Below, piece by piece: positions 3,801 to 18,704 of a stretch of 19,839 nt of DNA. The stretch is from positions 1 through 19,839 of the IMG/VR virus record IMGVR_UViG_2778261687_000006. One strand, 5' to 3'. This DNA is from a virus. Taxonomy: Duplodnaviria; Heunggongvirae; Uroviricota; Caudoviricetes. Under the pieces are notes generated by a model. It was not told where the DNA came from. It saw only the letters and a program-made list of their open reading frames with translations, and made no database searches. A program made the translations under genes and the position numbers. Position 1 is the stretch's first letter. Each line of letters opens with the position of its first letter.

Positions 3801-3802
3801 TA

Positions 3803-3955
3803 TCAGCCCTCCCATATCTCGTTATCGTTGGCCACATCGCGAGCTTCTTTGCTGACGAAAGCCCACTTAATGCCTTCCTGTAAGGTGCGGAACTTCCAGC
3901 TCATGAATCCGCATGCAGTAACGCAGTACCAACCGTTGATGATTTTCCACTGCAT
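3803..3955 (-). CDS. Small 50-aa ORF, first gene of the leftward early operon; not in the ORF track
   Basis: Hand translation MQWKIINGWYCVTACGFMSWKFRTLQEGIKWAFVSKEARDVANDNEIWEG; GAGG 9 nt upstream; stop TGA 3803-3805 lies 2 nt from the next start (TGATAATG). Confidence 0.3.
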   Translation of the reverse strand: MQWKIINGWYCVTACGFMSWKFRTLQEGIKWAFVSKEARDVANDNEIWEG

Positions 3956-3974
3956 AACTTGTTACCTCGGTCTG

Positions 3975-3989
3975 TTACCGTTTAGGTAA
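3975..3989. promoter_or_regulatory. Dyad operator-like site TTACCGTTTAGGTAA
   Basis: Inverted half-sites TTACC / GGTAA with a 5-bp spacer, overlapping the start of the leftward transcript. Confidence 0.5.
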
Positions 3990-4017
3990 TAATTATGCGT
4001 ATGTGGTTTGATGTCAA
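3989..4017 (-). promoter_or_regulatory. Candidate leftward early promoter (pL-like): -35 TTGACA at 4012-4017 (minus strand), -10-like TAATTA near 3989-3994
   Basis: Perfect TTGACA on the minus strand, about 16 bp spacer, A/T hexamer; flanked by dyad sites at 3975-3989 and 4037-4051. Confidence 0.4.
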
Positions 4018-4036
4018 TAGATATGAGTTAAAAAAA

Positions 4037-4051
4037 TTACCCGTTAGGTAA
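4037..4051. promoter_or_regulatory. Dyad operator-like site TTACCCGTTAGGTAA
   Basis: Same TTACC-N5-GGTAA dyad, upstream of the pL-like -35. Confidence 0.5.
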
Positions 4052-4060
4052 TCGAATAGG

Positions 4061-4086
4061 CAATAAAAAAGCCGCCATAAGGCGGC
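4061..4086 (-). terminator. Rho-independent terminator for the repressor-like gene
   Basis: On the minus strand: GCCGCC-ttat-GGCGGC hairpin followed by TTTTTTATTG, directly downstream of the stop of the 4109..4693 gene. Confidence 0.7.
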
Positions 4087-4108
4087 TTACTTACTGAAAA
4101 ATATGGTT

Positions 4109-4693
4109 TTATTGTTTGTTTTTTTCGTTCTGGTTGATGACAAATTCAATGTAACTTTCGATCTTTGCTTTCTCGGTTTCGGGTAACAATGCGTAGCGCG
4201 AGCGATCATAGTTGATGGTCGCAGGGTCGTGCGGGTGAATCAGTAATTCATAGCCGTGACGCCCGAATGCGGATGCAACATTCTCCAGGGTGGAAATGGA
4301 AACGCTGACCTCATTGTTTAACAGGCGGCTGATTGTCACCTGGGCGACGCCGGATGCGCGGTGTAGTTTTCCCTGCGTTGAAAGGTCGCGGCTTTCGCTC
4401 ATCCAGCGTTCCAGGTTGTGAGCCGCCAACTGACCAATGTCGCTTGGGCCGACAGGCTGAAAACCTTCCTGAGAAAGCGAGCGATCGATATCAAGCCAGT
4501 TACGGGGTTTATTGGCGGCAGCTTCAATTTTTCGTGCAACCTGGTCGCCGATAACCTTCTTGCCAAGAGCCCAGCGGTTTACCAGATTTGCCTGAGTTCC
4601 AAGTTTTTCAGCCATCCGCGTCTGAACACCATTGAATTCACGGTCGATCAAGTCGTTGAGATTTTGCCTGCGGACGTCCTGGATACTTTTCAT
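4109..4693 (-). CDS. Phage repressor-like protein with two XRE-type HTH domains, no peptidase S24 domain evident
   Basis: 194 aa; two HTH-like segments (TRMAEKLGTQANLVNRWALGKKVIGDQVARKIEAA and LHRASGVAQVTISRLLNNEVSVSISTLENVASAFG). Divergent from a Cro-like gene with operator repeats between. No Ala-Gly/Ser/Lys autocleavage signature seen. Confidence 0.65.
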   Translation of the reverse strand: MKSIQDVRRQNLNDLIDREFNGVQTRMAEKLGTQANLVNRWALGKKVIGDQVARKIEAAANKPRNWLDIDRSLSQEGFQPVGPSDIGQLAAHNLERWMSESRDLSTQGKLHRASGVAQVTISRLLNNEVSVSISTLENVASAFGRHGYELLIHPHDPATINYDRSRYALLPETEKAKIESYIEFVINQNEKNKQ

Positions 4694-4748
4694 TTTCTGG
4701 AAAATCGCCTCATATCTGAATCAGAAGATGATTCAATTTAAAGCAATA

Positions 4749-4822
4749 TTACCCAACAGGTAAATGCACCTCACGGGTAACTATCCTTGATTTTTGTTAC
4801 CTTATAGGTGAATATTTATTAT
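4749..4822. promoter_or_regulatory. Immunity-region operator/promoter cluster: three dyad sites (4749-4763, 4766-4780 degenerate, 4797-4811) and a PR-like promoter (-35 TTGTTA 4794-4799, -10 TATTAT 4817-4822)
   Basis: Three TTACC-N5-GGTAA-type sites spaced about 17-30 bp apart between the divergent genes; the third sits in the spacer of a plus-strand promoter 26 bp upstream of the Cro-like ATG. Confidence 0.5.
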
Positions 4823-4847
4823 CTGAAATAAATATCAGGCAATAGCT

Positions 4848-5078
4848 ATGAGCGATAACGGACATTTCGATTTCAAAAAGCACTGGCTTGCACTTACTCC
4901 GGATGAGCGTGAAGCCTTCGCACAGGAAGCCGGAACGACGAGTCACTATATCCAGACTCACTTAACAGGTAAGCGCAAAATGCCAGGTAAGGTATTGATG
5001 GATGGGCTTTTTAAAGCCTGTAAATCAAGACAATGGCTGCGCTCAAAAGCAGAACTGGCATACTTCTTCTACTCATGA
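4848..5078 (+). CDS. Cro-like small HTH regulator
   Basis: 76 aa, divergent from the repressor-like gene; HTH-like segment TPDEREAFAQEAGTTSHYIQTHLTGKRKMP; followed directly by an intrinsic terminator. Confidence 0.55.
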   Translation: MSDNGHFDFKKHWLALTPDEREAFAQEAGTTSHYIQTHLTGKRKMPGKVLMDGLFKACKSRQWLRSKAELAYFFYS

Positions 5079-5100
5079 TATCCAGCCACAACCCTCTGTA

Positions 5101-5122
5101 GACCGCCATCCGGCGGTCTTTT
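5101..5122 (+). terminator. Rho-independent terminator after the Cro-like gene
   Basis: GACCGCC-atcc-GGCGGTC hairpin followed by TTTT. Confidence 0.6.
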
Positions 5123-5133
5123 CATATCTATTC

Positions 5134-5148
5134 GTACCTCAAAGGTAA
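5134..5148. promoter_or_regulatory. Dyad operator-like site GTACCTCAAAGGTAA
   Basis: TTACC-N5-GGTAA family member just after the Cro terminator; an ATATGGTT box follows at 5160-5167. Confidence 0.45.
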
Positions 5149-5161
5149 TAAAAAACCAAAT

Positions 5162-5422
5162 ATGGTTGATCTTTTTTTTGTGTCAGCACAAAATAACCGT
5201 AATCCCAATACCAATAACAGGGCTTACCATGGAAATCATTACACGTATTTCGCTGTGATGCTCGCCACCGGAGAGATGGAACTGCACGAAGTGAAAGGTT
5301 TCTGGACCGACGACGCCAGGGTGAAAACCAAAGTCGCCGCAGATCAGTATCCGTTCCGAATCATCGGGGTAACGGTTAAACCAAAGAAAGCAGGTGGTGG
5401 CTGGAACATCGAAGAGTTCTGA
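5162..5422 (+). CDS. Hypothetical small protein; start codon uncertain (ATG 5162, or internal ATGs giving about 48-55 aa)
   Basis: ORF track entry; the first ATG lies inside the conserved ATATGGTT box and lacks an RBS. Coding status doubtful. Confidence 0.3.
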   Translation: MVDLFFVSAQNNRNPNTNNRAYHGNHYTYFAVMLATGEMELHEVKGFWTDDARVKTKVAADQYPFRIIGVTVKPKKAGGGWNIEEF

Positions 5423-5483
5423 ATCGACGATCTTTTTAGTTATCAATGTAATCAATAAGTTATGTGGATAAGCGAGGGTAAAG

Positions 5484-6197
5484 ATGGAAAGTAATATCAA
5501 AGGGTTAGTTTCCGCCGGGCATGAGATGGCTTCGGAACTGAAAGCAGAATGTGGTGCCGTTGATATGCGCAGTGTGGCAAAGCTGATCAGCGATTTGGCA
5601 ACGCAACTGGAAGTGCAACTGGTGCGTGCTAATGCGCTGGCCGAAGACCACCAGAGAGCCATTGAGTCAATTAAACAGGCTGATTCGGCTGTTAAGTTGG
5701 CACACGAGAAGTTTTCGGCGCTGGCTGCGGAGAATGCAAGACTGAAGGCCGGGGCTATGTATTTCTCATATGGCTCTGAATTTAGTTTCGAGTGTCACAA
5801 AACTGCTGAGGAGGCTATCGCTGCTGCTGAGGCTGCAATTGACGACTATAGAGGCGATGCTTGCGATGGATGGAGCGAAGAGGTCGAAAGCATTTGCTGG
5901 GGGGTAATTATTCAGCAGGCAACCAAGGTCGGTGAACGCAAGAAGAGGAAATGCGACAGAGTATCACCATGGATTGAAAGAGTTTGTGATTATGAGCTTC
6001 GACCTAATGTCGAAACCCCAGCCACCGATGCTTTCCTTGCTGAAGTTCGGGCGCAGGGGGTGGATATGGCTCGTAACGCGATGATTGATTTTGTTGATGG
6101 TGAAGTTGGGCCAAACAAGAACGTTCCGGGGCTGATTAGAGGCGCAGAGATATGCGTAAGTATTGCTGAACAGCTTCGCAAAGGAGGCAACCAGTGA
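5484..6197 (+). CDS. Hypothetical phage early protein with coiled-coil N-terminus (possibly Ea22-like)
   Basis: 237 aa; RBS GAGGG before the ATG; heptad-like Ala/Glu-rich N-terminal region; stop overlaps the start of the next gene. Confidence 0.55.
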   Translation: MESNIKGLVSAGHEMASELKAECGAVDMRSVAKLISDLATQLEVQLVRANALAEDHQRAIESIKQADSAVKLAHEKFSALAAENARLKAGAMYFSYGSEFSFECHKTAEEAIAAAEAAIDDYRGDACDGWSEEVESICWGVIIQQATKVGERKKRKCDRVSPWIERVCDYELRPNVETPATDAFLAEVRAQGVDMARNAMIDFVDGEVGPNKNVPGLIRGAEICVSIAEQLRKGGNQ

Positions 6198-6613
6198 GCG
6201 AAATTAATTACCAGGCACTGCGTGAGGCGGCGGAACGTGCAATTCCAGCAATGGAACGCCTGTTAATGTTGCCAGCTGATGATGATTTGTTAAGTGAACA
6301 GGAACTTAAAGATTACGGTGTGGATATTGATGCGCTCAACGCCTTCAAATTTCTGGCCGGACCAGAAACCGTGCTGGCACTACTGGATGAACGGGAAAGG
6401 AACCAGCAATACATCAAATCCCGCGATCAGGAGAACGAGGATATTGCGCTAACGGTTGGGAGGCTGCTAATCGAAAACGGCCGGCTTGTTGCCGATACGC
6501 TACGCCACTTAGCTGATAACGAAATCGACTCTGATTATTTTGCTATCACCTCAACGAATGAGAACGGTACTGAAATTGATCATGAGATGGCTATTACTGA
6601 GCCGCCAGGATGA
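6194..6613 (+). CDS. Ead/Ea22-like family phage protein (recollection-based assignment)
   Basis: 139 aa; GTG start with strong RBS AAGGAGG 6 nt upstream; N-terminus MSEINYQALREAAERA and VLALLDERERNQQ resemble lambdoid Ea22-like proteins as I remember them. Confidence 0.55.
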   Translation: MSEINYQALREAAERAIPAMERLLMLPADDDLLSEQELKDYGVDIDALNAFKFLAGPETVLALLDERERNQQYIKSRDQENEDIALTVGRLLIENGRLVADTLRHLADNEIDSDYFAITSTNENGTEIDHEMAITEPPG

Positions 6614-6761
6614 TGCACGTGTGCGCTGGCGTATAAAATCGATCAGCAGAAAACGGTGCGGTAAGTGCGGCGAGAGAGTTCCTGTTAATTCATGCCCGTG
6701 TAATGGTGACTCGCAATGCTGGGTGAATAAAGGCTGGCATGAAACGAAATTAATAGTGTGA
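6540..6761 (+). CDS. Possible small Cys-rich (zinc-ribbon-like) protein; coding status uncertain
   Basis: ORF overlaps the 3' end of the previous gene in another frame; C-terminal CGKCGERVPVNSCPCNGDSQCW has CxxC ... CxC spacing. Its stop codon lies inside the GTGACATGTCAC palindrome. Confidence 0.25.
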   Translation: MLSPQRMRTVLKLIMRWLLLSRQDDARVRWRIKSISRKRCGKCGERVPVNSCPCNGDSQCWVNKGWHETKLIV

Positions 6762-6769
6762 CATGTCAC
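6758..6769. repeat. Perfect 12-bp palindrome GTGACATGTCAC, copy 1
   Basis: Read directly; overlaps the stop codon of the 6540..6761 ORF, upstream of the terS terminator. Confidence 0.9.
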
Positions 6770-6810
6770 GAGTAGATTATGCATGATGAATTTGATGGGT
6801 TTTGAATACT

Positions 6811-6837
6811 GCCGCCAACTATGGCGGCTTTATTTTG
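6811..6837 (+). terminator. Terminator-like hairpin upstream of terS
   Basis: GCCGCC-aactat-GGCGGC followed by TTTATTTTG; same stem sequence as the 4061-4086 terminator. Confidence 0.5.
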
Positions 6838-6843
6838 CATGGT

Positions 6844-6872
6844 ACTATTACCACAACGGTAACTATTACCAC
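6844..6872 (+). repeat. Tandem direct repeat ACTATTACCAC (6844-6854 and 6862-6872) immediately upstream of terS
   Basis: GGTACTATTACCACAACGGTAACTATTACCACGG read directly; includes an inverted GGTAA-cta-TTACC arrangement. Confidence 0.8.
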
Positions 6873-6879
6873 GGTGGTT

Positions 6880-7476
6880 ATGATGCCTGCTGAACCTAAA
6901 ACCTATAAACGCAAATCAACGCAATTTAAGCCACTAACAGCAATGCAGGAGGCTTATTGCCAGTCATACATCAAAACGCCTGAAAACCAGACTCAGGCAG
7001 CGATTAACGCAGGATTTTCCCCAAATACAGCGGCAGTTAAAGCCAGTGTCATGATGCGCGATGAACGCATTCAAAAACGGATTGCCGAGTTGATGGAGGA
7101 GCGCAACAAACGAATGCGCGTCAGTGCTGATTACGTTCTCATGCGCCTGGTGGAGATCGACCAGATGGACGTGATTGATATCCTCAACGACGATGGGAGC
7201 CTTAAGCCAATCCGCGAGTGGCCGAAAATCTGGCGCACTACGCTTAGTGGCTTTGATCTGTCGTCGACCATCATGAACATGAACGAGGATTCGATAGAGA
7301 CAATCCTCAAAAAAATTAAATGGCCTGACAAGGTGAAGAACCTTGAGCTGATTGGTAAGCATGTTGATGTCAACGCGTTCAAAGAACGTCTGGATGTTAA
7401 TGTGAATGTGACAATTGCTGATCGCATAGCAGCAGCCAGGAAGCGACTCAAAGAACGTCAGGATGGTAATCAGTGA
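6880..7476 (+). CDS. Terminase small subunit (TerS)
   Basis: About 198 aa from the ATGATG at 6880; positioned immediately upstream of and overlapping the large terminase gene; basic helical N-terminal region (TAVKASVMMRDERIQKRIAEL) consistent with a DNA-binding small terminase. The track's TTG-start extension translates a direct-repeat region. Confidence 0.65.
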   Translation: MMPAEPKTYKRKSTQFKPLTAMQEAYCQSYIKTPENQTQAAINAGFSPNTAAVKASVMMRDERIQKRIAELMEERNKRMRVSADYVLMRLVEIDQMDVIDILNDDGSLKPIREWPKIWRTTLSGFDLSSTIMNMNEDSIETILKKIKWPDKVKNLELIGKHVDVNAFKERLDVNVNVTIADRIAAARKRLKERQDGNQ

Positions 7477-8948
7477 CAGATACAGCGTTATCTCCTGAAG
7501 AGCAGTTGATCGAGGATATTGCAGGGTTCACTCACGATCCGCTTGGCTATGCCCTCTATGCGTTCCCGTGGGGGGAAGAGGGGACTGAACTGGCACATGC
7601 TACCGGTCCACGTCAGTGGCAGGCTGATGCGTTCCGAGAGATACGTGATCACCTGCAGAATCCAGAGACGCGCTATCAGCCGCTTATGCTGGCACGTGCT
7701 TCTGGTCACGGTATTGGTAAATCCGCATTCATCTCAATGCTGATCAACTGGGGCATGTCCACTTGCGAGGATTGTAAGGTCGTGGTGACCGCCAATACCG
7801 ACAACCAGCTACGAACGAAGACCTGGCCGGAAATTATCAAGTGGTCGAACCTTGCTATCACGAAAGACTGGTTCACCTGTACCGCTACCGCGATGTACAG
7901 CAATGATCCTGGGCACGACAAGCGGTGGCGAGCTGACGCAATCCCCTGGTCTGAGCACAATACTGAGGCGTTCGCCGGACTACACAACGAGCGCAAACGT
8001 ATCATCGTGGTATTCGATGAAGCGTCGAACATTGCGGATCTGGTGTGGGAAGTTGCCGAGGGTGCGCTTACGGACGAAGACACTGAGATTATCTGGGTGG
8101 CGTTCGGAAACCCGACGCGTAATACCGGACGTTTCCGAGAATGTTTCCGCAAATATAAACACCGCTGGAAAACTGCGCAGATTGACAGCCGGACGGTTGA
8201 AGGCACTAACAAACAGCAGTTGCAGAAATGGGTTGATGACTACGGGGAAGACAGCGACTTCGTTAAAATCCGTGTGCGTGGCATATTCCCTGATGCATCT
8301 GAATTGCAGTTTATCCCTACCGGTCTTACTGACGAGGCAATGAAACGGGTGGTAACCGCTGCGCAGGTGGCACATGCTCCGGTGATAATCGGCGTTGACC
8401 CGGCATACTCCGGCGTTGATGACGCGGTGATATACCTGCGGCAGGGGCTGCACAGTAAGGTGCTGTGGACTGGCAACAAGACCACCGACGATCTGATTAT
8501 GGCGAAGCGTATCGCTGACTTTGAAGACCAGTATCAGGCCGACGCGGTGTTCATCGACTTCGGTTACGGTACTGGCCTGAAGTCAATCGGTGACGACTGG
8601 GGGCGCACATGGCAACTTGTTCCGTTCGGTGGCGCGTCTACTGACCCGCAGATGCTCAACAAGCGTGGGGAGATGTTCAACTCATGTAAGACATGGCTGA
8701 GGCTGGGCGGGATGCTGGATGACCAGGAAACAGCGGACGACCTGTCGACGGCAGAGTACAAAGTTCGCGTGGACGGTAAAATCGTTATCGAACCGAAGGA
8801 AGATATCAAAGAGCGACTTGGGCGTTCGCCGGGGAAAGGCGATGCGCTATTGCTGACGTTTGCTTTCCCTGTGTCGAAGCGCCTGCGAATTCCCGGTCAG
8901 CAGAACCAGCAAGGCAAGGCCATCACAGATTACGACCCGTTTGCGTGA
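7473..8948 (+). CDS. Terminase large subunit (TerL), ATPase plus nuclease
   Basis: 491 aa; Walker A-like ASGHGIGKSAF, Walker B-like RIIVVFDEASN, C-terminal acidic nuclease-like motif VIIGVDPAYSG. GTG start overlaps the terS stop (GTGA). Confidence 0.85.
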   Translation: MTDTALSPEEQLIEDIAGFTHDPLGYALYAFPWGEEGTELAHATGPRQWQADAFREIRDHLQNPETRYQPLMLARASGHGIGKSAFISMLINWGMSTCEDCKVVVTANTDNQLRTKTWPEIIKWSNLAITKDWFTCTATAMYSNDPGHDKRWRADAIPWSEHNTEAFAGLHNERKRIIVVFDEASNIADLVWEVAEGALTDEDTEIIWVAFGNPTRNTGRFRECFRKYKHRWKTAQIDSRTVEGTNKQQLQKWVDDYGEDSDFVKIRVRGIFPDASELQFIPTGLTDEAMKRVVTAAQVAHAPVIIGVDPAYSGVDDAVIYLRQGLHSKVLWTGNKTTDDLIMAKRIADFEDQYQADAVFIDFGYGTGLKSIGDDWGRTWQLVPFGGASTDPQMLNKRGEMFNSCKTWLRLGGMLDDQETADDLSTAEYKVRVDGKIVIEPKEDIKERLGRSPGKGDALLLTFAFPVSKRLRIPGQQNQQGKAITDYDPFA

Positions 8949-8949
8949 T

Positions 8950-9690
8950 TTATTGCTTATTTTTCACGGCTTCAGCAATCATTCTCTCAGCCTGTGATGT
9001 ATATGTTTTTCGCAAGGGTTCATGGCCCATATGCAATACGATACCTTCCTTTTCTTTTTCCTTTAATTCTTGTATGAGATTATTTATTTTGGCCTCCCTA
9101 TCTTCAAGCATTCTGGCGGACTTTTCTGCCTCAATCTTTAACGCTGCAGCCACTGATTGCATGTTTTCCAGCTTCTTATTCAATTCCAAAACCTTATCGG
9201 AGAGCCTATCTCTTTCCGCCGTTAGCTCACCCATCCTGGCCTGTGACTCCGTAATTCTTTCCTTCATAGCCTGTATGTCTTTTTCGGCGCCAGTCTTAAC
9301 TTTGTCGTATGTCACATCGTGCTTTGCCTTCAGGCGCTGCAGGCGTGTGGCGCGATGAATGCGCTTGGCCTTCCGGTGGTTCTCTATCGAATCGTAATTA
9401 TCAAGAGGTTTGGCTTGCCACTTTGAAATCACGTTGTTGATCCAGGGCATGCCGCCGCACAGGATTATTGCTGAAACACATGGGAATGCTAATACCGTTT
9501 TCCAACTGCTATTACTGGAAATGTAGGTGATCTTGTCGATGATGCTGGAGTCGCTGAGGAGTAAGTATAAAATCGACTTCCAGTTAAAGGCGCACCATGA
9601 CAGTGCGAACGCTCCAAACACTGGATTTCTGACCCTTTGCGCAGCGGTATTAACGGTTGAAGATAGGTATTCTTTAAGTGATTCAAGCAT
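8950..9690 (-). CDS. AT-rich cargo gene: membrane-anchored coiled-coil protein of unknown function (candidate superinfection-exclusion or abortive-infection factor)
   Basis: 246 aa; two hydrophobic segments near the N-terminus, then a long charged heptad-like region (KERITESQARMGELTAERDRLSDKVLELNKKLENMQ). AAGGG RBS. Convergent with terL with a 1-nt gap. Visibly AT-rich compared with neighbours. Confidence 0.55.
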   Translation of the reverse strand: MLESLKEYLSSTVNTAAQRVRNPVFGAFALSWCAFNWKSILYLLLSDSSIIDKITYISSNSSWKTVLAFPCVSAIILCGGMPWINNVISKWQAKPLDNYDSIENHRKAKRIHRATRLQRLKAKHDVTYDKVKTGAEKDIQAMKERITESQARMGELTAERDRLSDKVLELNKKLENMQSVAAALKIEAEKSARMLEDREAKINNLIQELKEKEKEGIVLHMGHEPLRKTYTSQAERMIAEAVKNKQ

Positions 9691-9720
9691 GTCCAGGCCC
9701 TTTTAGGTTTTTTTCTGATT

Positions 9721-9735
9721 CTACCTTTAAGGTAA
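9721..9735. promoter_or_regulatory. Dyad operator-like site CTACCTTTAAGGTAA in the promoter of the 8950..9690 gene
   Basis: Lies in the spacer of a candidate minus-strand promoter (ATGACC ... TAGAAT) about 40 bp upstream of the start codon. Confidence 0.45.
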
Positions 9736-9757
9736 TCTTCGGTCATTATGAAAAACG

Positions 9758-9803
9758 TATCCCTATGAGGGGATAATGTCGTTGATATCCTCTGATGAGG
9801 ATA
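9758..9803. promoter_or_regulatory. Two tandem dyads of a second type, TATCC-N8-GGATA (9758-9775 and 9786-9803)
   Basis: TATCCctatgaggGGATA and TATCCtctgatgaGGATA, 28 bp apart, upstream of the 8950..9690 promoter. Confidence 0.4.
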
Positions 9804-9829
9804 AAACAAAGCCAGCTCATCGGCTGGCT
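9801..9829 (-). terminator. Rho-independent terminator after the 9850..10221 gene
   Basis: On the minus strand: AGCCAGC-cgatgag-GCTGGCT hairpin followed by TTGTTTTAT, about 20 nt past the stop codon. Confidence 0.5.
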
Positions 9830-9833
9830 GTTT

Positions 9834-9845
9834 GTGACATGTCAC
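9834..9845. repeat. Perfect 12-bp palindrome GTGACATGTCAC, copy 2
   Basis: Read directly; 5 nt beyond the stop of the 9850..10221 gene, before its terminator hairpin. Confidence 0.9.
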
Positions 9846-9849
9846 GGTG

Positions 9850-10221
9850 TTATTGCTCGCTTAACTTCTGCTTCAGCAAGTAACCTTCAAGCATCCAGAT
9901 TTTGTTTACAGCATTCTGCCGGGCAATCTTCCGACCAATTTCCGCATCAAAGTTTTCCGGGCTTGCACAGGCGCTCTCTCCGGTGACGGTGAAGCCGTTG
10001 CGCAGCACCAGAACGCAGAACGTCAGCAGAGAAAGTGATTCGTGCGGCTGGTAGTTTACCTCTCCGCCAGTATGTTTCGCTTTTATGGCTACGCCAAAGA
10101 CACCATCTTCTGCTGTGAAATATGCCTCCTGAGCAATAATGCTCTCGATATGGTCTGGCGTAACGCGCGGCGCGGCTAAACCTTTAGCCTGAATTTCAGA
10201 TTCAATGTCTTTGTCACTCAT
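9850..10221 (-). CDS. Conserved hypothetical phage protein (123 aa)
   Basis: ORF with RBS AAGGTGA; sequence feels familiar from enterobacterial prophages but I cannot name the family with confidence. Confidence 0.55.
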   Translation of the reverse strand: MSDKDIESEIQAKGLAAPRVTPDHIESIIAQEAYFTAEDGVFGVAIKAKHTGGEVNYQPHESLSLLTFCVLVLRNGFTVTGESACASPENFDAEIGRKIARQNAVNKIWMLEGYLLKQKLSEQ

Positions 10222-10424
10222 AGTCTAATCTCACCTTAAAAAAATGCCCGGCGAACCGGGCGAACTGGAAGCAATGAGTTATGCCTTCCGTGGCTGTACT
10301 GGTTTACAGCATGAAGTCATCGCAATGGCGTCCTGCTGTAAAAAGGGCGGTGATAGTCCTTCAAGGGAAACCATCACCGCCAAGCCCCTGGAACTTCTGG
10401 CATCACGGTCCTTAGGCGTGATTC

Positions 10425-10501
10425 TGGCGTGGCATGCAGGATTCGAACCTGCGACCAACCGCTTAGAAGGCGGTTGCTCTGTCCAACTGAGCTAATGCCA
10501 C
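10425..10501 (-). tRNA. tRNA-Arg (anticodon UCU), phage-encoded
   Basis: Hand-folded cloverleaf on the minus strand: acceptor GTGGCAT/ATGCCAC, D-arm GCTC-AGTTGGACA-GAGC, anticodon arm ACCGC-CTTCTAA-GCGGT (U33, anticodon TCT, A37), variable loop TGGTC, T-arm GCAGG-TTCGAAT-CCTGC, discriminator G, encoded CCA. Acceptor and anticodon stems differ from host argU as I recall it. Confidence 0.85.
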
Positions 10502-10823
10502 AACGCTGAGAGCACTTAGCCTGTTAAGGCGCCACACTTTGTCGCGGCTCCATAAATGCTCTCATCGTTGCACCCTCGTCTCTTCCGAGGCGTCACACCG
10601 AATCGCCGGGATGGTGAATCCCCGTGCGCGGAATAAAACCGCTCGACTTGCACATTCCGGCTACCTGGTTCGTTTGCCCGAGCAAGGGAGGGTGCCCCTT
10701 AAACGTATCCAGACCGCTATCGTCGCATGTGCCATACGCCGTACTGCTCAACATAAAAGCTCACTCCACCTGTTCAATTTAACGACAAGCCAGTCAGGTT
10801 AGTAACCGGAATGAACTCTTTTG

Positions 10824-10838
10824 TTACCTGAAAGGTAA
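10824..10838. promoter_or_regulatory. Dyad operator-like site TTACCTGAAAGGTAA
   Basis: Lies beside a minus-strand TTGACA (10855-10860) and about 70 bp upstream of a -10-like GATAAT (10899-10904) for the plus-strand operon. Confidence 0.45.
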
Positions 10839-10928
10839 TAATTTGCGCATTAAATGTCAACTGTCTACGACAAGTAAATCATATGTGGTTAAATTGGTGA
10901 TAATTTAATTGCGTACGGAGTCATTGAT

Positions 10929-11186
10929 ATGTGCATGGGTAGCTCACCATCAGTGCCTGCAACACCAGAAGTTCAGGCAGCACCACAGGAGCAGGATGCC
11001 GCCGTTGTTGATGCCCGCGACGAAGAAACTCGTCGCCGTCGCGCTGCTGCTGGTCGTAGTTCTACGCTGCTTGAGGCGGTGCAGAACCGCATGAACGATA
11101 TGTTCAATAAGTCGAATCTCTACCAGTCGCTGCCGGTGTTCAGCGGTATCTGCGTGTTAACTACTCCGTCGCAACTGGCCCACTAA
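10929..11186 (+). CDS. Hypothetical protein (85 aa); may be part of a frame-disrupted larger gene
   Basis: RBS GGAG 8 nt upstream of the ATG. A second frame stays open from 11111 to 11267 without any start codon and translates to protein-like sequence. Confidence 0.4.
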   Translation: MCMGSSPSVPATPEVQAAPQEQDAAVVDARDEETRRRRAAAGRSSTLLEAVQNRMNDMFNKSNLYQSLPVFSGICVLTTPSQLAH

Positions 11187-11279
11187 CGGCTGGCGAATTC
11201 ACTGCTGGTATCAGTCTTGATGTTGATGCCAATACGCCGTATCCGATCCGCTCAAAAGTAACTGGTTAAGGTGATATCG

Positions 11280-11630
11280 ATGTCAGGTGAGAAACCAAGA
11301 TACCGCGTTCTGCGCCTCTCTCATATCCATAACACTCTGTGGCCGGAGGGGGCAGAAATCGAATACGAAGGTGAGCCTGGTAGCGCACTGGAACCTGTTA
11401 ACGATGCAGCCAGACAGGCAAAAGCAAAGGTAGCAGGAAAGGTGTCAATGGCAGCAACCAGTACCAAAATCATCAACGATGTGTCAGATGATGGTGAGCT
11501 GGATAAGCTCCGTGAAGAGTACGAATTGCTCTTTAACGAGAAGCCACACCATAACGCCAAAGCCGAAACGCTCCGCGAGAAGATCGCAGATAACCGGTTC
11601 TGGTATTCAGCGTGGAACATGGAAAGGTGA
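11280..11630 (+). CDS. Hypothetical protein (116 aa)
   Basis: ATG at 11280 with RBS GGTGA 6 nt upstream; acidic, helical-looking sequence. The +1 frame stays open across its last 150 nt. Confidence 0.5.
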   Translation: MSGEKPRYRVLRLSHIHNTLWPEGAEIEYEGEPGSALEPVNDAARQAKAKVAGKVSMAATSTKIINDVSDDGELDKLREEYELLFNEKPHHNAKAETLREKIADNRFWYSAWNMER

Positions 11631-11679
11631 ATTAACGAGAAGTGTTTTCCTGTTTAAATCGTTCCCTATCTCGGTGGTT

Positions 11680-12240
11680 ATGCGTCACTGGTCACGCGCT
11701 ATGGGTATGCCGTCTGCTGGTGGGCGTGCGGCATATATTGCGACGTTTATTGCCAGTACGACCATTCTTGGAGCTTTGTCGCAGCAACTTAACGACCTTG
11801 CGTCTGGTCGTAATCCTCGCGAGATGACAGGAGAAGATGCCGCAAAATTCTGGCTTGGTGCTCTATTGAAAGGTGGTGGTCTTGGCCTTTACGGTGACTT
11901 TTTATTGTCAGATCACACTAGGTACGGAAGCGGCGCGCTGGCGTCGATGCTTGGCCCGGTGGCTGGTCTGGTTGATGACGTAGTGAAGATTGCTCAGGGC
12001 ATACCGTTAAATGCTGTGGAAGGGAAGAGTGAGCAGACTGGTGGTGATCTGGTGAAGCTGGGGAAAGGTTTGATGCCAGGTGCGAATCTCTGGTACTTGA
12101 AGGCGGCTCTCGATCACATGATCTTTAACCAGATGCAGGAGTATTTTTCACCAGGCTATTTGCGTAAAATGGAGCAACGTTCGAAGAAAGAGTTTAACCA
12201 GACATACTGGTGGCGACCTCAGGATGTCACTCCGCAATAA
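11680..12240 (+). CDS. Hypothetical protein with Gly-rich hydrophobic segments; start poorly defined (ATG 11680 or GTG 11674), possible frameshift fusion with the upstream ORF
   Basis: Long open frame 11479..12240, protein-like only after about 11640; no well-spaced RBS at the candidate starts. Confidence 0.45.
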   Translation: MRHWSRAMGMPSAGGRAAYIATFIASTTILGALSQQLNDLASGRNPREMTGEDAAKFWLGALLKGGGLGLYGDFLLSDHTRYGSGALASMLGPVAGLVDDVVKIAQGIPLNAVEGKSEQTGGDLVKLGKGLMPGANLWYLKAALDHMIFNQMQEYFSPGYLRKMEQRSKKEFNQTYWWRPQDVTPQ

Positions 12241-12249
12241 GGATGAGAA

Positions 12250-12390
12250 ATGATTGCTTTTATTCTTGTTGTATTTGTGCTTGTTGCCCTTGGCGTTATG
12301 AATCGTAAATGTATCATTGAAGACGGTGAATTTGCTGTAGCAGTTGTTTTGATATTATCTGGTGTAGCAGGGTACATAGGTTTGTCATAG
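12250..12390 (+). CDS. Small hydrophobic peptide (46 aa, two predicted membrane segments); not in the ORF track
   Basis: Hand translation MIAFILVVFVLVALGVMNRKCIIEDGEFAVAVVLILSGVAGYIGLS; RBS AGGA upstream; stop TAG at 12388-12390. Confidence 0.35.
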   Translation: MIAFILVVFVLVALGVMNRKCIIEDGEFAVAVVLILSGVAGYIGLS

Positions 12391-12397
12391 CTTGAGT

Positions 12398-12409
12398 GTG
12401 ACATGTCAC
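12398..12409. repeat. Perfect 12-bp palindrome GTGACATGTCAC, copy 3 (extended form TGTGACATGTCACA)
   Basis: Read directly; in the convergent gap between the 12250..12390 ORF and the 12434..12691 gene. Confidence 0.9.
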
Positions 12410-12433
12410 AGGCCGCTTTCGCGGCCCTTAAAT

Positions 12434-12691
12434 TTACCGGATTTGTTTTCGTAATTGTTCGGCACAATAGTCGAGATGTGTTTGCAGATCCTGCATAGAC
12501 ATCTGTGAGCTGGTGACGTAGTTAATCAGTGCAGTCAGTTCGGCAAGTGGGCCATCGACATTAAATCCATCCTTATCGAGATCCCGGAGTAATTTCATCA
12601 AGTGCGATCCCTCCACCAGTGACCTGACGCCTCCCGGCGTGTGAATCCTTTCGGTAAATCCGTCTTCCAGTGGATAGTGATACTGCTGCAT
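12434..12691 (-). CDS. Hypothetical protein (85 aa from the ATG at 12691)
   Basis: ORF track 12434..12757 with a GTG at 12757; the internal ATG at 12689-12691 has GGAG about 8 nt upstream. Divergent from the tailspike gene. Confidence 0.45.
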   Translation of the reverse strand: MQQYHYPLEDGFTERIHTPGGVRSLVEGSHLMKLLRDLDKDGFNVDGPLAELTALINYVTSSQMSMQDLQTHLDYCAEQLRKQIR

Positions 12692-12767
12692 CTTATCTTC
12701 TCCATGCAATAACTGTATATTTATGCAGTAGCAAATAATTTGTTTGCTATCCAGCACGTTTTGCGAA

Positions 12768-12782
12768 TCACCTGAAAGGTAA
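12768..12782. promoter_or_regulatory. Dyad operator-like site TCACCTGAAAGGTAA
   Basis: In the divergent intergenic region between the 12434..12691 gene and the tailspike gene; followed by the ATCCATATGTGGTT box (12809-12822) and a -10-like TAGAAT (12833-12838). Confidence 0.45.
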
Positions 12783-12886
12783 TATCTGTTCGTATTTATG
12801 GTTTATCTATCCATATGTGGTTTTTCAGGTAATAGAATAACCGGATATGCGGCGCAACGGGTGCTGCGACTATCTGGAGATTTAAC

Positions 12887-15571
12887 ATGACGGTCTCAAC
12901 CGAAGTTGACCATAACGAATATACAGGTAATGGCGTTACGACTTCATTTCCTTATACCTTTCGAATTTTTCAGAAGTCAGACCTGGTTGTGCAGGTTGTT
13001 GATCTGGATGAAAATATAACCACTCTTGTGCTTGATACTGATTATTCGATTACAGGTACTGGTGGATACACGGGGGGGAATGTTGTTTTATCAACTGCTT
13101 TAGGCAATGGGTATAAGATTTCTATTTCAAGAGAGTTGCCGGTTACCCAAGAAACAGACCTAAGGAACCAGGGGAAGTTTTTTGCAGAAGTGCATGAGGA
13201 TGCATTTGATAAGTTAACTATGCTTGTTCAGCAGGTAAGAAGTTGGTTTAGTCTGTCGTTAAGAAAACCATCCTTTGTAGCCAACTATTATGACGCCCTG
13301 GGCAACTATATCAGAAATCTCAGGGATCCATCTCGGCCGCAAGATGCTGCTACAAAGAACTATGTAGACAGTATTTCTGAAACCAATCTCAACAGAACGC
13401 TAAGAACACCTGAACCTATACCCACACTTCCATCTGCCGCTGTCAGGGCGAACAAGATAATAGCCTTCGATAATAGTGGGTCTCCTTTTGTAACATTGCC
13501 GCCATCTGGTTCTGCCACTGATGTTCTTGTTGAATTAGTGAAACCAACAGGTGCCGGGTTATCAGGTTATAGCGATTCTATCCAGTATCCTGACGGTACT
13601 GTTGGTAGTGCCATTAAAGATCAGAATTTCAGGAAAAAAATAATCTACAAACTTCCATTTCAGTTCGCTGGGTATTCTGATGCACTGGCGGCAATTGGAG
13701 CTGGAAGCATCATATACCCGCAGGGTGCTGACTATGATGATGATGGTCTACTCTTCATTAACTATGTGCCTAATGCTGGAGGGGCGCTTAGGGTTATAGT
13801 TGTTTATAACCAGGCAGGAGAGCAAGTAACGTGGTTTTATAGTCCAAACAGTAGTAATCAGTCTGTGGCTATATATGGCGGAAGTTCATCACGTAGATTG
13901 TATGACAGACGTCTTGGGGATGATTTTGTTTATTATTATGACATAACCACATTACCCGCAGCAGGTAGCACGCTTTCAGGGCACACAATAACGACAATTC
14001 AGTCGGCTGGATCACATATGTGCATTGAGGGTAATTTACTCTTCTGCACATTAAACGCGACACCAGTAGGATTGTCACAATCACAGACTGTTATAAATTC
14101 TTATCGTCTTGATACAGGTGAGAAGCAGGGAACAATAAATGTCTCTCAGATGCTTACAGGGTTTGCAACTCCAGAGCTCTCCCCTACCTACTATTACATG
14201 GTATGGAAAATTCAGGGTATAGCATACAAAAATGGGATCCTTCATATAGGCGTAGGTGGCAGTTATCGTCCTACATTTGATGATGCAAAATACCCTGTTC
14301 ATGATTACGGAGTCCTCAGAGTGTCACTCTCTGGTGAGTTAATAGACCACTCTGTTGTGAAATCAGATAAGTTGATGACTTATCTGGCATCAAACGGTTG
14401 CACCGTCTCAAGAACAGAGTCAGAGGGATGTTTCAAGCACCCTGACGGCACTATCCATTCAATTCTTATCGGTGATATGGCTGAATCATCTCCTAGCACA
14501 CCCAATGGCATTGTTATAATGAGGGAGTTTTCAAGAGATGGGTTTGACATGCTGGATGCCGCTTCAGGATACTGCCCGATACCAACATATGGATTTAATA
14601 GGCTCATGCGTTCGGAGCATGGGGAACTGCGCGATCCAGTCTTAAATACAGTCTTCAGCAGTGTTACTCAAATTCTTGATTTAATGGCTTCATTAAACAT
14701 AACTGAGTTCTCTTGGTTTTCAACCATTGCTCCTTCGCTCACCACGATACCTGGTCTTAACTACGTAATAGGACAAATTTACCATGTTACTAATATGAAC
14801 AATGCAGGATTCATTATTGAATCCTCCGGTACTGTACTTGGGCTAGAAATTTATTCCGTAGTTGGCAGAATTGGGTCATGGACAGCTACAAGGCGCTCAT
14901 TGTCAGGAACAAAGCTTAATATTAATAATTCAGGTGGTTTAGGCAAAATATCATTTACAACGTCAACAGGAAAAGAAGTTGGCATCGCTCAAATAAACTA
15001 TACCGGAACCTCTACGCCTCTTGTTATCGGCTCAGGGGGTACTTTAAACCCTAATGCTATTTTCTTCTTCACAAATCCGACAGTGACAAGTGAAAGTGGT
15101 GGGACTCAATCTCTTCAGATTTACAGTGATCAGGTATTGCCTGGCGTCGCTAGCGCGCAGTCTAACGGGAGTGCATCATTTAAATGGACTCAGGTCTACG
15201 CCGATTCTGGTTCCATTAACACATCTGACAGAAGAAAGAAGACAGATTTCGAGGATATAAGTGAAGCCGAAAAGCGTGTGGCTATCAAGATTAAGGGAAT
15301 GATTTGTCGGTACAGAATGAAGGATGCGGTAGCTATTAAAGGCGATGGCGCAAGATATCATATAGGTGCAATTGTCCAGGATGTTATCTCTGCGTTCGAG
15401 GATGAAGGGCTAGATCCCATGCGTTATGGGATGGTTTGCTACGATAAGTGGGATAAGAAGGAACCAGAATATGATGAAAATGGAATCATGACATTCTCAG
15501 GTTGCGAAGCTGGTGATGGTTACTCTTTGAGATATGATGAGATGTTATGTTTCATTATTTCTGCTATTTAA
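12887..15571 (+). CDS. Tailspike / tail fibre protein with C-terminal intramolecular chaperone (peptidase S74-like self-cleaving domain)
   Basis: 894 aa; N-terminus MTVSTEVDHNEYTGNGVTTSFPYTFRIF resembles the T7-gp17-type particle-binding domain and, from memory, epsilon15-like tailspikes; Ser/Thr/Gly-rich central region; C-terminal ...INTSDRRKKTDFEDISEAEKRVAIKIK... matches the endosialidase-type chaperone domain. RBS GGAG. Confidence 0.85.
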   Translation: MTVSTEVDHNEYTGNGVTTSFPYTFRIFQKSDLVVQVVDLDENITTLVLDTDYSITGTGGYTGGNVVLSTALGNGYKISISRELPVTQETDLRNQGKFFAEVHEDAFDKLTMLVQQVRSWFSLSLRKPSFVANYYDALGNYIRNLRDPSRPQDAATKNYVDSISETNLNRTLRTPEPIPTLPSAAVRANKIIAFDNSGSPFVTLPPSGSATDVLVELVKPTGAGLSGYSDSIQYPDGTVGSAIKDQNFRKKIIYKLPFQFAGYSDALAAIGAGSIIYPQGADYDDDGLLFINYVPNAGGALRVIVVYNQAGEQVTWFYSPNSSNQSVAIYGGSSSRRLYDRRLGDDFVYYYDITTLPAAGSTLSGHTITTIQSAGSHMCIEGNLLFCTLNATPVGLSQSQTVINSYRLDTGEKQGTINVSQMLTGFATPELSPTYYYMVWKIQGIAYKNGILHIGVGGSYRPTFDDAKYPVHDYGVLRVSLSGELIDHSVVKSDKLMTYLASNGCTVSRTESEGCFKHPDGTIHSILIGDMAESSPSTPNGIVIMREFSRDGFDMLDAASGYCPIPTYGFNRLMRSEHGELRDPVLNTVFSSVTQILDLMASLNITEFSWFSTIAPSLTTIPGLNYVIGQIYHVTNMNNAGFIIESSGTVLGLEIYSVVGRIGSWTATRRSLSGTKLNINNSGGLGKISFTTSTGKEVGIAQINYTGTSTPLVIGSGGTLNPNAIFFFTNPTVTSESGGTQSLQIYSDQVLPGVASAQSNGSASFKWTQVYADSGSINTSDRRKKTDFEDISEAEKRVAIKIKGMICRYRMKDAVAIKGDGARYHIGAIVQDVISAFEDEGLDPMRYGMVCYDKWDKKEPEYDENGIMTFSGCEAGDGYSLRYDEMLCFIISAI

Positions 15572-15576
15572 AAAAT

Positions 15577-15600
15577 GCCCCGTAGAGGGGCTTTTTTTTT
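15577..15600. terminator. Bidirectional rho-independent terminator shared by the tailspike and acyltransferase genes
   Basis: GCCCC-gtaga-GGGGC hairpin flanked by AAAAA upstream and TTTTTTTTT downstream. Confidence 0.75.
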
Positions 15601-16588
15601 ACTTGGCTATCACCCTATTTAACAAAGGAGTTTTTGAAAGTATCACAGCTATCAACAGGGACGCAAAGACATAAAATATAGTTGCAACAGGTATTCCCCA
15701 TGCATAATTTGATACTGGAGCTATTTTCCATGTTATAAATATAATAATAGGATGTATAAGATAAATTCCAAATGCATATTCGGAAATTAGAGTTACAAGT
15801 TTATTTGCATTTTTGCTTATTCTGTCTGCGTATCCAATGCAGGCGCAGGTTGTTGCTATTGCTGTCATGCCAACAATGGGGCTAAAGTTGCTTAGGTTTA
15901 CTCCTTTGATCCCATGAATCAATATAGCCTTATTTGTAAAGACACATATAACCGCAAGGATAACAGCAGTTAACGAAATGAAAGCGCGTAATTTTATGAT
16001 ATGGCTTTCAAGTCGTGCAACTATACATCCGGCAAAAATATAGAACATTAATGTACTTACAAATGGAATATCTATAGATGGTGCATTAGGAATAAAATTC
16101 TTTAGTTGTGGGTATAAAGAATTTCCATAGAATAGAATTAAAAATATCATCACGTTATACCGCAAATCCATGCGTTGGCATCCAATAATTATCATCGGGA
16201 GAAACATGTAAATCGCAATATAATGATACATAAACCATAGATGAACAGCAGATGGCTTCATGATATTAAAGCTGCTTACTGAAGTATCTTTAAATATAAT
16301 GTAATAAGATGCATATATTACCCACCAAAATACAAGAGGGACAAATAAGACATTAAAACCCTTTTTAATGTAATCATGGAATTCGAATTCCTTTTTATGG
16401 TAGTAAAGAAACCCTGTTATAACTATGAAAATACCAATGCATTGCTTTGATATGGCGCTATATACGTTAGCCCAATCCCAATCAGGCGAAGACTTTGCAC
16501 CAACTGGACCAGCGGCAACATGCAGCAACACCACCAGCACAATGGCGATGAAACGAGCTAAAACTACGCCATAGTTCTTCTCATTCAT
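15599..16588 (-). CDS. Acyltransferase family 3 integral membrane protein, likely O-antigen acetyltransferase (lysogenic conversion)
   Basis: 329 aa, about 10 hydrophobic segments; N-terminal VLARFIAIVLVVLLHVAAG matches the acyltransferase-3 signature (R-x-x-x-H in TM1); visibly AT-rich; sits directly after the tailspike gene as serotype-converting acetylases do in P22-like/Sf6-like phages. Confidence 0.8.
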   Translation of the reverse strand: MNEKNYGVVLARFIAIVLVVLLHVAAGPVGAKSSPDWDWANVYSAISKQCIGIFIVITGFLYYHKKEFEFHDYIKKGFNVLFVPLVFWWVIYASYYIIFKDTSVSSFNIMKPSAVHLWFMYHYIAIYMFLPMIIIGCQRMDLRYNVMIFLILFYGNSLYPQLKNFIPNAPSIDIPFVSTLMFYIFAGCIVARLESHIIKLRAFISLTAVILAVICVFTNKAILIHGIKGVNLSNFSPIVGMTAIATTCACIGYADRISKNANKLVTLISEYAFGIYLIHPIIIFITWKIAPVSNYAWGIPVATIFYVFASLLIAVILSKTPLLNRVIAK

Positions 16589-16641
16589 TTTAATATTTAT
16601 CCAATATTTTTAATGGGTTCCACAATCATTAACTACAATAT

Positions 16642-16656
16642 ATACCCATAAGGTAA
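16642..16656. promoter_or_regulatory. Dyad operator-like site ATACCCATAAGGTAA
   Basis: Between the acyltransferase and lysis genes; followed by ATCCATATATGGTT (16685-16699) and a -10-like TATGAT (16706-16711). Confidence 0.45.
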
Positions 16657-16752
16657 TTTAGTTAAGAGTTATCAGAGGTAAACTTATCCATATATGGTTT
16701 ATTGTGTATGATGGACTTACCAACTAAGGGGGTTCATTATGCACAGTAAACG

Positions 16753-18574: not shown

Positions 18575-18704
18575 TTTCCGGTGACGGTATATAAAACGGT
18601 ACTAGAAAAATTAAGTTTTGGAAAAATGTTATCACTCAATTGGTTATGATTGTCGTAAATAATTGAGTGGGAATGATTTGACCCTGCACTATGAATGAAC
18701 AAAA

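Follow-up and report, generated by a model that had tools for sequence, protein, structure and literature searches.

The prophage and its regulatory genes

The DNA analyzed here, referred to as the window, is a 19,839-nucleotide stretch of a tailed virus (IMG/VR record IMGVR_UViG_2778261687_000006, positions 1 to 19,839) in which one inverted repeat, TTACC-N5-GGTAA (hereafter the dyad), recurs between genes. The window is an epsilon15/phiV10-type prophage (genus Uetakevirus) that runs collinear with phiV10 between a point just past int and one beyond the lysis genes. Compared with phiV10, it has lost its replication genes (phiV10 33227-35319) and nearly all of the virion module (phiV10 3500-3883, 3949-7599, and 8065-18684), with four deletion junctions (window 5247-5249, 11069-11072, 11130-11135, and 11589-11596), and has gained a cargo gene on a 0.8-kb insertion (window 8945-9768). 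Because the replication genes and nearly the entire virion module are missing, the prophage is defective, yet its regulatory regions are kept: the repressor, antirepressor, terminase, tailspike, O-acetyltransferase, and lysis genes are present, as are all operators.

Three regulatory proteins are central to what follows. The repressor, Rep (4109..4693, minus strand, 194 amino acids), has an N-terminal helix-turn-helix (HTH), a second HTH_3 domain, and a C-terminal region. Divergent from it lies the gene for a Cro-like small HTH protein (4848..5078, plus strand, 76 amino acids), a homologue of epsilon15 gp39 that matches phrog_35, 'transcriptional repressor' (8.7e-13). The antirepressor, Ant (12434..12691, minus strand, 85 amino acids), is encoded divergently from the tailspike gene, at the same position as ant of phage SPC32H, and matches the 'Anti-repressor protein' of PDB 5D50_E (E = 1.6e-46).

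Map of the dyads

The leftmost two dyads are exact copies that flank PL, a predicted minus-strand promoter of the leftward recombination/regulator operon (3989..4017; TTGACA at 4017-4012, a 17-bp spacer, and AATTAT at 3994-3989; 10/12 match). OL1 (TTACCGTTTAGGTAA, 3975..3989) abuts the -10 hexamer, which ends in the first T of the dyad, and spans about -7 to +8. OL2 (TTACCCGTTAGGTAA, 4037..4051) lies on the other side of the promoter, 62 bp from OL1.

Three copies lie between the divergent rep and cro-like genes, which bears out the first-pass annotation of this DNA in calling this an OR-like region. OR-a (4749..4763) is exact and orthologous to the epsilon15 site at 33341. OR-b (GCACCTCACGGGTAA, 4766..4780), 17 bp from OR-a, is degenerate; its orthologue is a perfect dyad in epsilon15, SPC32H, and BUCT711, at the equal 17-bp spacing. 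OR-c (TTACCTTATAGGTGA, 4797..4811) falls within the predicted rightward early promoter (PR), read as TTGTTA(4794)/17/TATTAT(4822) or alternatively as TTGATT(4787-4792)/17/GAATAT(4810-4815). Shortly after the PR -10, the cro-like leader also holds an A/T-rich inverted repeat (ATATTTAT / ATAAATAT, 8-nucleotide loop, 4812-4835) that is conserved in Tyrion and absent from epsilon15. Just past the cro terminator (5100-5119) stands a further dyad (GTACCTCAAAGGTAA, 5134..5148), conserved in phiV10 and Tyrion.

Two dyads precede the terminase genes. Dyad 1 (6848..6862) is exact, is orthologous to epsilon15 12-26 (annotated 'protein_bind repressor'), and directly follows an extended -10 element, TGgTACTAT (6840-6848), downstream of a terminator at 6811-6828. 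Dyad 2 (TTACCACGGTGGTTA, 6866..6880) has one mismatch, lies 18 bp from dyad 1, and covers the Shine-Dalgarno sequence of the terminase small subunit. This 18-bp pair is conserved in phiV10, Tyrion, and epsilon15. The longest open reading frame (ORF) of the small subunit, from TTG 6802 as in the phiV10 annotation (at 41), spans this strong terminator and both dyads. Since these elements precede the gene and dyad 2 covers its Shine-Dalgarno sequence, the true start is probably ATG 6883, which alignment with epsilon15 supports and which has GGTGG before it; the phiV10 small subunit is likely annotated too long.

The remaining four dyads are spread over the rest of the prophage. The cargo-gene dyad (CTACCTTTAAGGTAA, 9721..9735) lies in the spacer of a predicted minus-strand promoter, ATGACC/17/TAGAAT. 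An exact copy at 10824..10838, between tRNA-Arg (minus strand) and the gp3/portal unit (plus strand), is the orthologue of epsilon15 2932-2946, annotated as repressor-binding, and abuts a minus-strand promoter-like sequence, TAGACA/18/AATTAT (10867-10838). The divergent ant-tailspike region holds a dyad (TCACCTGAAAGGTAA, 12768..12782) orthologous to epsilon15 19896-19910, likewise annotated as repressor-binding. The last one (ATACCCATAAGGTAA, 16642..16656) lies in the divergent region between the O-acetyltransferase gene (oac) and the lysis cassette, in the spacer of a minus-strand promoter-like sequence, TTAACT/17/TATATT (16665-16637), and is conserved in phiV10, Tyrion, epsilon15, and SPC32H.

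All nine sites that the first-pass annotation had listed, and the degenerate copy at 4766-4780, were recovered at the same positions, and its description of the nine (GGTAA kept in eight of them, a 5-bp A/T-rich spacer in all) was accurate. Its list was incomplete at the terminase genes, where the exact site at 6848-6862 and the one-mismatch site at 6866-6880 had been missed. Its broader point also stood: beyond OR, the dyad recurs at the left operon, after cro, and at the cargo, gp3/tRNA, ant/tailspike, and oac/lysis regions, an arrangement conserved across the genus.

Enrichment and intergenic placement of the dyad

Five exact copies of TTACC-N5-GGTAA occur in the 19.8-kb window against 0.01 expected, and none of the shuffled sequences reached five. 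Eleven sites have at most one mismatch. With up to two mismatches there are 23 sites against 5.9 expected, a count that again no shuffle reached; the two-mismatch matches are genic noise with the sole exception of the copy at 4766, which brings the operator map to 12 sites. To avoid circularity, an unbiased enumeration of dyads was run in which every 5-mer was paired with its reverse complement across spacers of 0 to 12 nucleotides. TTACC-N5-GGTAA ranked first with its five copies, and the most frequent dyad across 200 first-order resamples had three. A 150-kb sample of the Escherichia coli K-12 chromosome contained one exact copy and four with at most one mismatch, or 2.7 per 100 kb, compared with 55 per 100 kb in the window, a density about 20 times this background. 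The count against shuffled and host DNA that the first-pass annotation had proposed thus confirmed an enrichment, and its claim that every copy is intergenic held as well: all 11 sites with at most one mismatch lie between genes, although intergenic DNA makes up only 10.8% of the window (P = 2e-11). Seven of the 12 sites are outside OL and OR, so the dyad is not confined to the repressor-flanking promoters as in lambda.

Spacers and flanks of the dyads are A/T-rich, and the motif could in principle be a chance or compositional feature of A/T-rich intergenic DNA. The fivefold exact occurrence against 0.01 expected, the top rank among all dyads, and the density relative to E. coli leave this explanation with virtually no probability, and we rejected it on the enrichment statistics; the invariant half-sites with varying spacers and the orthologous sites in six genomes described below also speak against it.

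An origin of the symmetry at the RNA level, as hairpins acting as attenuators, processing sites, or terminators, would suit the copies that lie in likely 5' leaders, and the terminase pair (6848-6880) folds at -10.4 kcal/mol. The stems are only 5 bp, however, and single sites fold at -2 to -7.5 kcal/mol, mostly no better than shuffled sequences. One-mismatch variants (TCACC..GGTAA, GTACC..GGTAA, and ATACC..GGTAA) are uncompensated, many copies stand upstream of or inside core promoters on either strand, and Rfam matches nothing in the window except a tRNA. Given the weak folds and the uncompensated variants, the hairpin explanation was rejected as very improbable.

Conservation of the dyad in relatives and prophage populations

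The epsilon15 GenBank record (AY150271.2) carries seven features labeled 'protein_bind / repressor / lysogeny', and all seven are TTACC-N5-GGTAA dyads. They stand before the terminase, gp3/portal, and tailspike genes, with three more in the left operon and one in the replication unit. Our scan found 15 epsilon15 sites with at most one mismatch against 0.56 expected, among them unannotated ones at OR, lysis, and int. The genome paper for this phage is reportedly that of Kropinski and colleagues from 2007. The dyad is also found at orthologous positions in phiV10 and in SPC32H, Enterobacter phage Tyrion, and Klebsiella phage BUCT711 (Reps 43-78% identical to the window Rep). The 62-63-bp spacing of dyad pairs recurs in phiV10, Tyrion, epsilon15, SPC32H, and BUCT711; orthologous sites and conserved pair spacings of 62 bp and 17-18 bp extend over six genomes.

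Variation within the immunity type was examined in 80 IMG/VR viral-contig prophages (loci L015-L094) retrieved with the repressor as query; the repressor is 100% identical in 80/80 of the sampled contigs, which marks this immunity type as very common and uniform among E. coli prophages. At OL and OR, none of 50 half-site positions varies among these prophages, compared with 9 of 25 positions in the 5-bp spacers and 46 of 339 in the remaining intergenic DNA. The half-sites of OL1 are invariant, those of OL2 are invariant while 4/5 of its spacer positions vary, and OR-a has no variable position among its 15. The post-cro dyad at 5134 is less constrained than the other sites, with 2/10 half-site positions variable. 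Fixed half-sites and free spacers are the footprint of a dimer-type recognition site. Reps only 43-78% identical keep the same half-sites in other hosts, which raises the question of cross-immunity across the genus.

More distant relatives have the dyad in a different arrangement. Pseudomonas phage PseuP_224 has TTACC-N4-GGTAA next to cI, and Psychrobacter phage pOW20-A has (A/T)TACC-N5-GGTA(A/T) next to cI; in each case the S24-type CI shares only the N-terminal HTH domain with Rep. A Q antiterminator is annotated in PseuP_224, and pOW20-A has a Cro-like protein alongside its dyad. The comparison of helix and half-site covariation covered these two distant phages; a protein search with the N-terminal domain of Rep gave only close relatives in truncated form. 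Because both lambdoid relatives keep their dyads at OL and OR only, dispersal of the dyad is specific to Uetakeviruses. A literature search by operator strings gave no match, and a search on Uetakevirus operators yielded only the paper on phage ZX5, which maps no operators.

Repressor, antirepressor, and Cro-like protein

The Rep sequence recurs without change (100% identity) as phiV10p40 and as the repressor of phage ZX5. It matches SPC32H Rep (PDB 5D50_A) over its full length, with residues 1-190 aligned (E = 4e-42). Pfam assigns residues 106-147 to HTH_3 and gives a weaker HTH-like match for residues 21-61, which fits the dual-HTH repressor proposed by the first-pass annotation. Only HTH families were found in Rep by the Pfam search, with no S24 peptidase domain, and Rep is predicted to be non-autocleavable. 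Its putative N-terminal recognition helix (N36-L-V-N-R-W41) is invariant in five Reps, also between those only 43-44% identical; this invariance matches that of the half-site. According to PMC9638917, SPC32H Rep binds palindromic DNA as a tetramer in which the DNA-binding pairs come from different dimers, tetrameric Ant disassembles it, and one Rep tetramer is enough for repression. The single dimer envisaged by the first-pass annotation is therefore at odds with the homologous protein. The tetramerization fold of SPC32H Rep is of the type found in DNA-looping regulators, as described in PMC9986798.

Directly upstream of ant is a LexA-like SOS box (AACTGTATATTTATGCAGTA, 12711..12730; 17/20 match to the SOS consensus), the only one in the window, and none occurred in shuffled sequences. 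Antirepressors of the Ant type are often controlled by LexA, according to a preprint (bioRxiv 2025.11.27.690993). The box reads CTGT-N8-GCAG in the window, and phiV10 has the canonical CTGT-N8-ACAG at the equal place; the GCAG variant could weaken LexA control of ant in this prophage.

Taken together, we regard the dyads as the probable operators (probability about 0.8) of the prophage's own immunity repressor, a predicted non-cleavable two-HTH Rep of the SPC32H/epsilon15 type. They are highly enriched, strictly intergenic, selectively maintained, and orthologously placed across the genus, and in every testable respect the window corresponds to an SPC32H-type Rep/Ant/LexA system and to the sites annotated in epsilon15. 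By analogy with the homologues, Rep would bind palindromic operators via pairs of N-terminal HTH domains within a tetramer, and DNA damage would lead to synthesis of LexA-controlled Ant and to release of Rep from all sites at once. When the identical ZX5 repressor was overexpressed, holin and endolysin transcripts fell by 99.97-99.99% (PMC9782041), a result consistent with direct control by Rep though no proof of it.

The Cro-like protein might bind the same dyads with or instead of Rep and act as a class-I-like late activator from about -70/-80, so that an early lytic regulator would double as the late activator. Its HTH (AGTTSHYIQ) does not vary among five phages, and conservation is higher for this protein than for Rep. 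It accompanies Rep and the dyad always, pOW20-A included, and the putative dyad positions of -70, -70, and -82 at the late units (see below), held at rigid spacing, resemble upstream activator geometry. The transcription start sites behind these positions are guesses, however, no solved structure was found for the protein, its own site might be the second motif described below, and the epsilon15 record assigns the sites to the repressor. We consider this arrangement unlikely.

Promoter geometry and a second conserved motif

All promoters discussed here are predictions, and the geometry is derived from them. The dyad overlaps the predicted core promoter at PL, PR, terminase, and the cargo gene, with the -10 hexamer extending into the first T of TTACC or the dyad occupying the -35/-10 spacer; bound Rep should thus occlude RNA polymerase there. 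The PL layout (dyad, 20 bp, -35, 17 bp, and a -10 running into the next dyad; 62-63 bp between dyads) recurs at the replication-unit promoter of phiV10, Tyrion, epsilon15, SPC32H, and BUCT711. Dyad pairs 62 bp apart would thus bracket PL and the replication-unit promoter (deleted here), a spacing that would suit a tetramer holding two dyads.

A second conserved dyad-like element, motif 2, with a consensus of about AACCATATATGGTT, lies 19.5 to 52.5 bp (centre to centre) to the right of a Rep dyad, in or just upstream of core promoters. One copy (AACCAAATATGGTT, 5154..5167) is 19.5 bp centre to centre from the post-cro dyad. At the gp3/portal unit, motif 2 (AATCATATGTGGTT, 10877..10890) is just upstream of a conserved -10-like region, GGT(A/G)ATAATTT; at the tailspike unit (ATCCATATGTGGTT, 12809..12822) it is upstream of the invariant, -10-like GGTAATAGAAT; and at the lysis unit (ATCCATATATGGTT, 16686..16699) it is upstream of a -10-like TATGAT/TATAAT. 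A degenerate copy (3995..4008) fills the -35/-10 spacer of PL, where Tyrion has a near-perfect copy, and in relatives motif 2 also fills the spacer of the replication-unit promoter. Four copies with at most two mismatches occur in the window against 0.09 expected and none in the 150 kb of K-12, a statistic that is post hoc, as the motif was found by eye; independent support comes from the fact that all relatives conserve the motif. Rep dyad and motif 2 stand an exact distance apart: 38 bp before gp3 (six genomes), 26 bp before the tailspike gene (six), and 29 bp before the lysis cassette (five). The DNA within these gaps is 31-69% identical to the window in relatives (55-92% in phiV10). Neither the epsilon15 nor the phiV10 record annotates motif 2, and an informal comparison with DnaA, IHF, CRP, and Fis consensus sequences gave no convincing fit. 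A role as a -35 element is unlikely: the interval from motif 2 to the -10-like hexamers is not constant, varying by 3 bp among units.

Several observations weigh against the interpretation of the dyads as directly acting Rep operators. A consensus promoter scan finds overall no excess over shuffled sequences. In the late regions, counting from the likely -10, the three dyad centres fall ~70-82 bp upstream (roughly -70, -70, and -82), a distance too great for simple occlusion. Oddly, the promoter predicted nearest to oac would give a lysogenic-conversion gene a repressor site. The transcript levels measured for ZX5 fit direct and indirect repression alike. Finally, since Rep and the Cro-like protein always co-occur (in the same ~35 records of the phage collection), sequence alone cannot tell which of them binds the dyad, or whether both do. 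The late geometry is compatible with cooperative or looping repression, in which motif 2 is a weak site in the core promoter, or with upstream activation.

These distances bear on another explanation, in which the late-region dyads mainly control leftward promoters (those of ant, O-acetyltransferase, and the tRNA-Arg side), late genes are switched on in a cascade by an early-encoded activator at motif 2, and Rep and ant form a double-negative bistable switch. The minus-strand promoter-like sequences would place the dyad at about -7 to +8 (10867-10838) or within the spacer (16665-16637), the dyad at 12768 is ~40 bp from the LexA-like box of ant, and the dyads of the rightward units are centred ~70-82 bp from the conserved -10-like hexamers. 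Candidate activators are also encoded, namely, a PerC-like activator (835-1134), AlpA-like and MarR-like proteins, and a phrog_536 'transcriptional regulator' whose gene (6540-6761) is the last before terminase, at the end of the early-right operon. On the other hand, the leftward promoter predictions are not conserved in epsilon15, repression of oac in lysogens makes little sense, and the 38-, 26-, and 29-bp spacings, exact despite drift of the DNA between, argue for a physical link of the dyad to the rightward promoter. Control of leftward promoters is a credible possibility, though in our judgment short of even odds, and it is compatible with the operator function of the dyads rather than exclusive of it.

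With the dyads taken as Rep operators, the late regions would most likely have Rep as an anchor that cooperates with an occupant of the core promoter, and/or controls the leftward promoter (ant, oac, and tRNA). In net effect, one repressor would touch nearly every transcription unit, probably alongside early-encoded regulators rather than in their place. The first-pass annotation had proposed direct control of essentially every unit without a cascade. Operators do stand at nearly every unit, but a cascade likely coexists with direct control by Rep, since the window encodes the PerC-like, AlpA-like, MarR-like, and phrog_536 regulators, and the late dyads lie ~70-82 bp upstream with motif 2 in the core promoter. 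The site that the first-pass annotation assigned to the tailspike gene is in the tailspike region, but in divergent orientation with ant and beside the LexA-like box, and may control ant.

The inserted cargo gene

The inserted cargo gene (phrog_4780; 8950-9690, minus strand) has its own Rep dyad in the predicted promoter, within an upstream region at 9691-9768. A homologue in the Klebsiella Uetakevirus BUCT711 has homologous upstream DNA with a dyad-like sequence (CTACCATAACGGTAT). In the lambdoid phage KO-TP1, the DNA upstream of the cargo gene is homologous and the dyad is destroyed (GTATCTTATGGTAAA). The cargo-gene promoter thus keeps its dyad only in Rep-encoding phages.

Comparison with known repressor systems

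The window and epsilon15 share the genus, a homologous repressor, the dyad (often ATTACC...GGTAAT), and its orthologous positions at terminase, gp3/portal, tailspike, and the left operon. They differ in that the epsilon15 repressor is only ~43% identical to the window Rep and seven of its 15 fitting dyads are annotated; the window has an additional site at the cargo gene and has lost, through deletion, the dyad pair of the replication unit.

With the SPC32H Rep/Ant/LexA system (PDB 5D50 and 5D4Z), the window has in common homologues of Rep and Ant, a LexA-like box upstream of ant, the lack of an S24 domain, and palindromic operators. One tetramer is said to suffice there (PMC9638917), whereas the window has 12 sites per 20 kb. 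We found no published account of the genome-wide site distribution or late-promoter geometry of SPC32H. The SPC32H Rep/Ant system was reportedly described by Kim and Ryu in 2013 and by Kim and colleagues in 2016.

The layout at the left end resembles that of lambda CI/Cro: the repressor and cro-like genes diverge around three dyads, two more dyads occur at the leftward promoter, and distant relatives of the Rep N-terminal HTH (the CI proteins of PseuP_224 and pOW20-A) keep the lambda layout. Unlike lambda, the window has sites beyond OL and OR, a repressor without a RecA-dependent cleavage domain, and induction mediated by an antirepressor.

The first-pass annotation had likened the distribution to mycobacteriophage stoperators, a likeness that holds for dispersal only. 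As in L5 and cluster A phages, one immunity repressor would serve many dispersed sites, some of them in transcribed leaders past terminators: the post-cro dyad (5134) and terminase dyad 2 (6866) follow terminators or lie in leaders. The mycobacteriophage sites number more than 20 and are asymmetric 13-mers, to which a monomer binds through two of its domains; a set orientation with respect to transcription is indispensable to them (PMC9283540). The window sites, in contrast, are symmetric and thus cannot encode orientation, number ~12-15 per genome, and mostly overlap predicted promoters; Rep is homologous to the tetrameric SPC32H Rep. P1 is another enterobacterial phage with dispersed operators and antirepression (Coi/Ant). 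Its C1 repressor has ~22 dispersed operators, asymmetric 17-mers (ATTGCTCTAATAAATTT) as opposed to the symmetric dyad of the window, and loses its activity when a small protein binds it non-covalently (PMC8546580).

Other features of the prophage

A listed ORF at 5162-5422 is a deletion artefact in which the start region of a phiV10p42 homologue is fused to the C-terminal part of a DUF1064 protein; its first ATG falls inside motif 2. The tRNA next to the gp3 dyad, tRNA-Arg(UCU) (10425-10501, minus strand), is the sole Rfam match in the window, and the phiV10p04-like ORF that overlaps it antisense (10244-10495, plus strand) is unlikely to be a genuine gene.

A perfect 12-bp palindrome (GTGACATGTCAC) occurs three times in the window (6758-6769, 9834-9845, and 12398-12409) against 0.04 expected, and each copy adjoins a predicted intrinsic terminator at the end of an operon. 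Epsilon15 and SPC32H carry it at all three of these positions, and phiV10, Tyrion, and BUCT711 at two or three; there is none in 150 kb of K-12 and none in PseuP_224 or pOW20-A. The ends of the phiV10 record fall within one copy.

Implications

The scattered dyad is already known, because both it and its dispersal are annotated in epsilon15 and the repressor system is structurally solved; our results are a rediscovery rather than a new system. Possible novelties are motif 2 with its locked spacing at the late promoters, the difference from lambdoid relatives, and the retention of the cargo dyad only in Rep-encoding phages. We tentatively sketch a broader scheme, as a whole less likely than not, in which a lambda-type repressor/operator module was rewired in Uetakeviruses into a whole-genome lock: every unit would carry a Rep dyad, the late dyads would stand at a fixed, helically phased distance from motif 2, an Ant-sensitive tetramer or the Cro-like protein would set the silencing and timing of late genes without an antiterminator, and cargo genes would acquire a dyad to be tolerated. 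No N- or Q-type antiterminator was recognised in the scanned parts of the window. The late genes of P1 need the activator Lpa.

The dyad itself changes little conceptually. Its practical value is a clean map of operators, open to testing, for an immunity type that is very common among E. coli prophages; phiV10-type phages are used as reporter phages for O157:H7. Motif 2, the genus-specific dispersal, and the cargo dyad lead to the question of how late-gene timing works in a phage in which no N- or Q-type antiterminator can be recognised.

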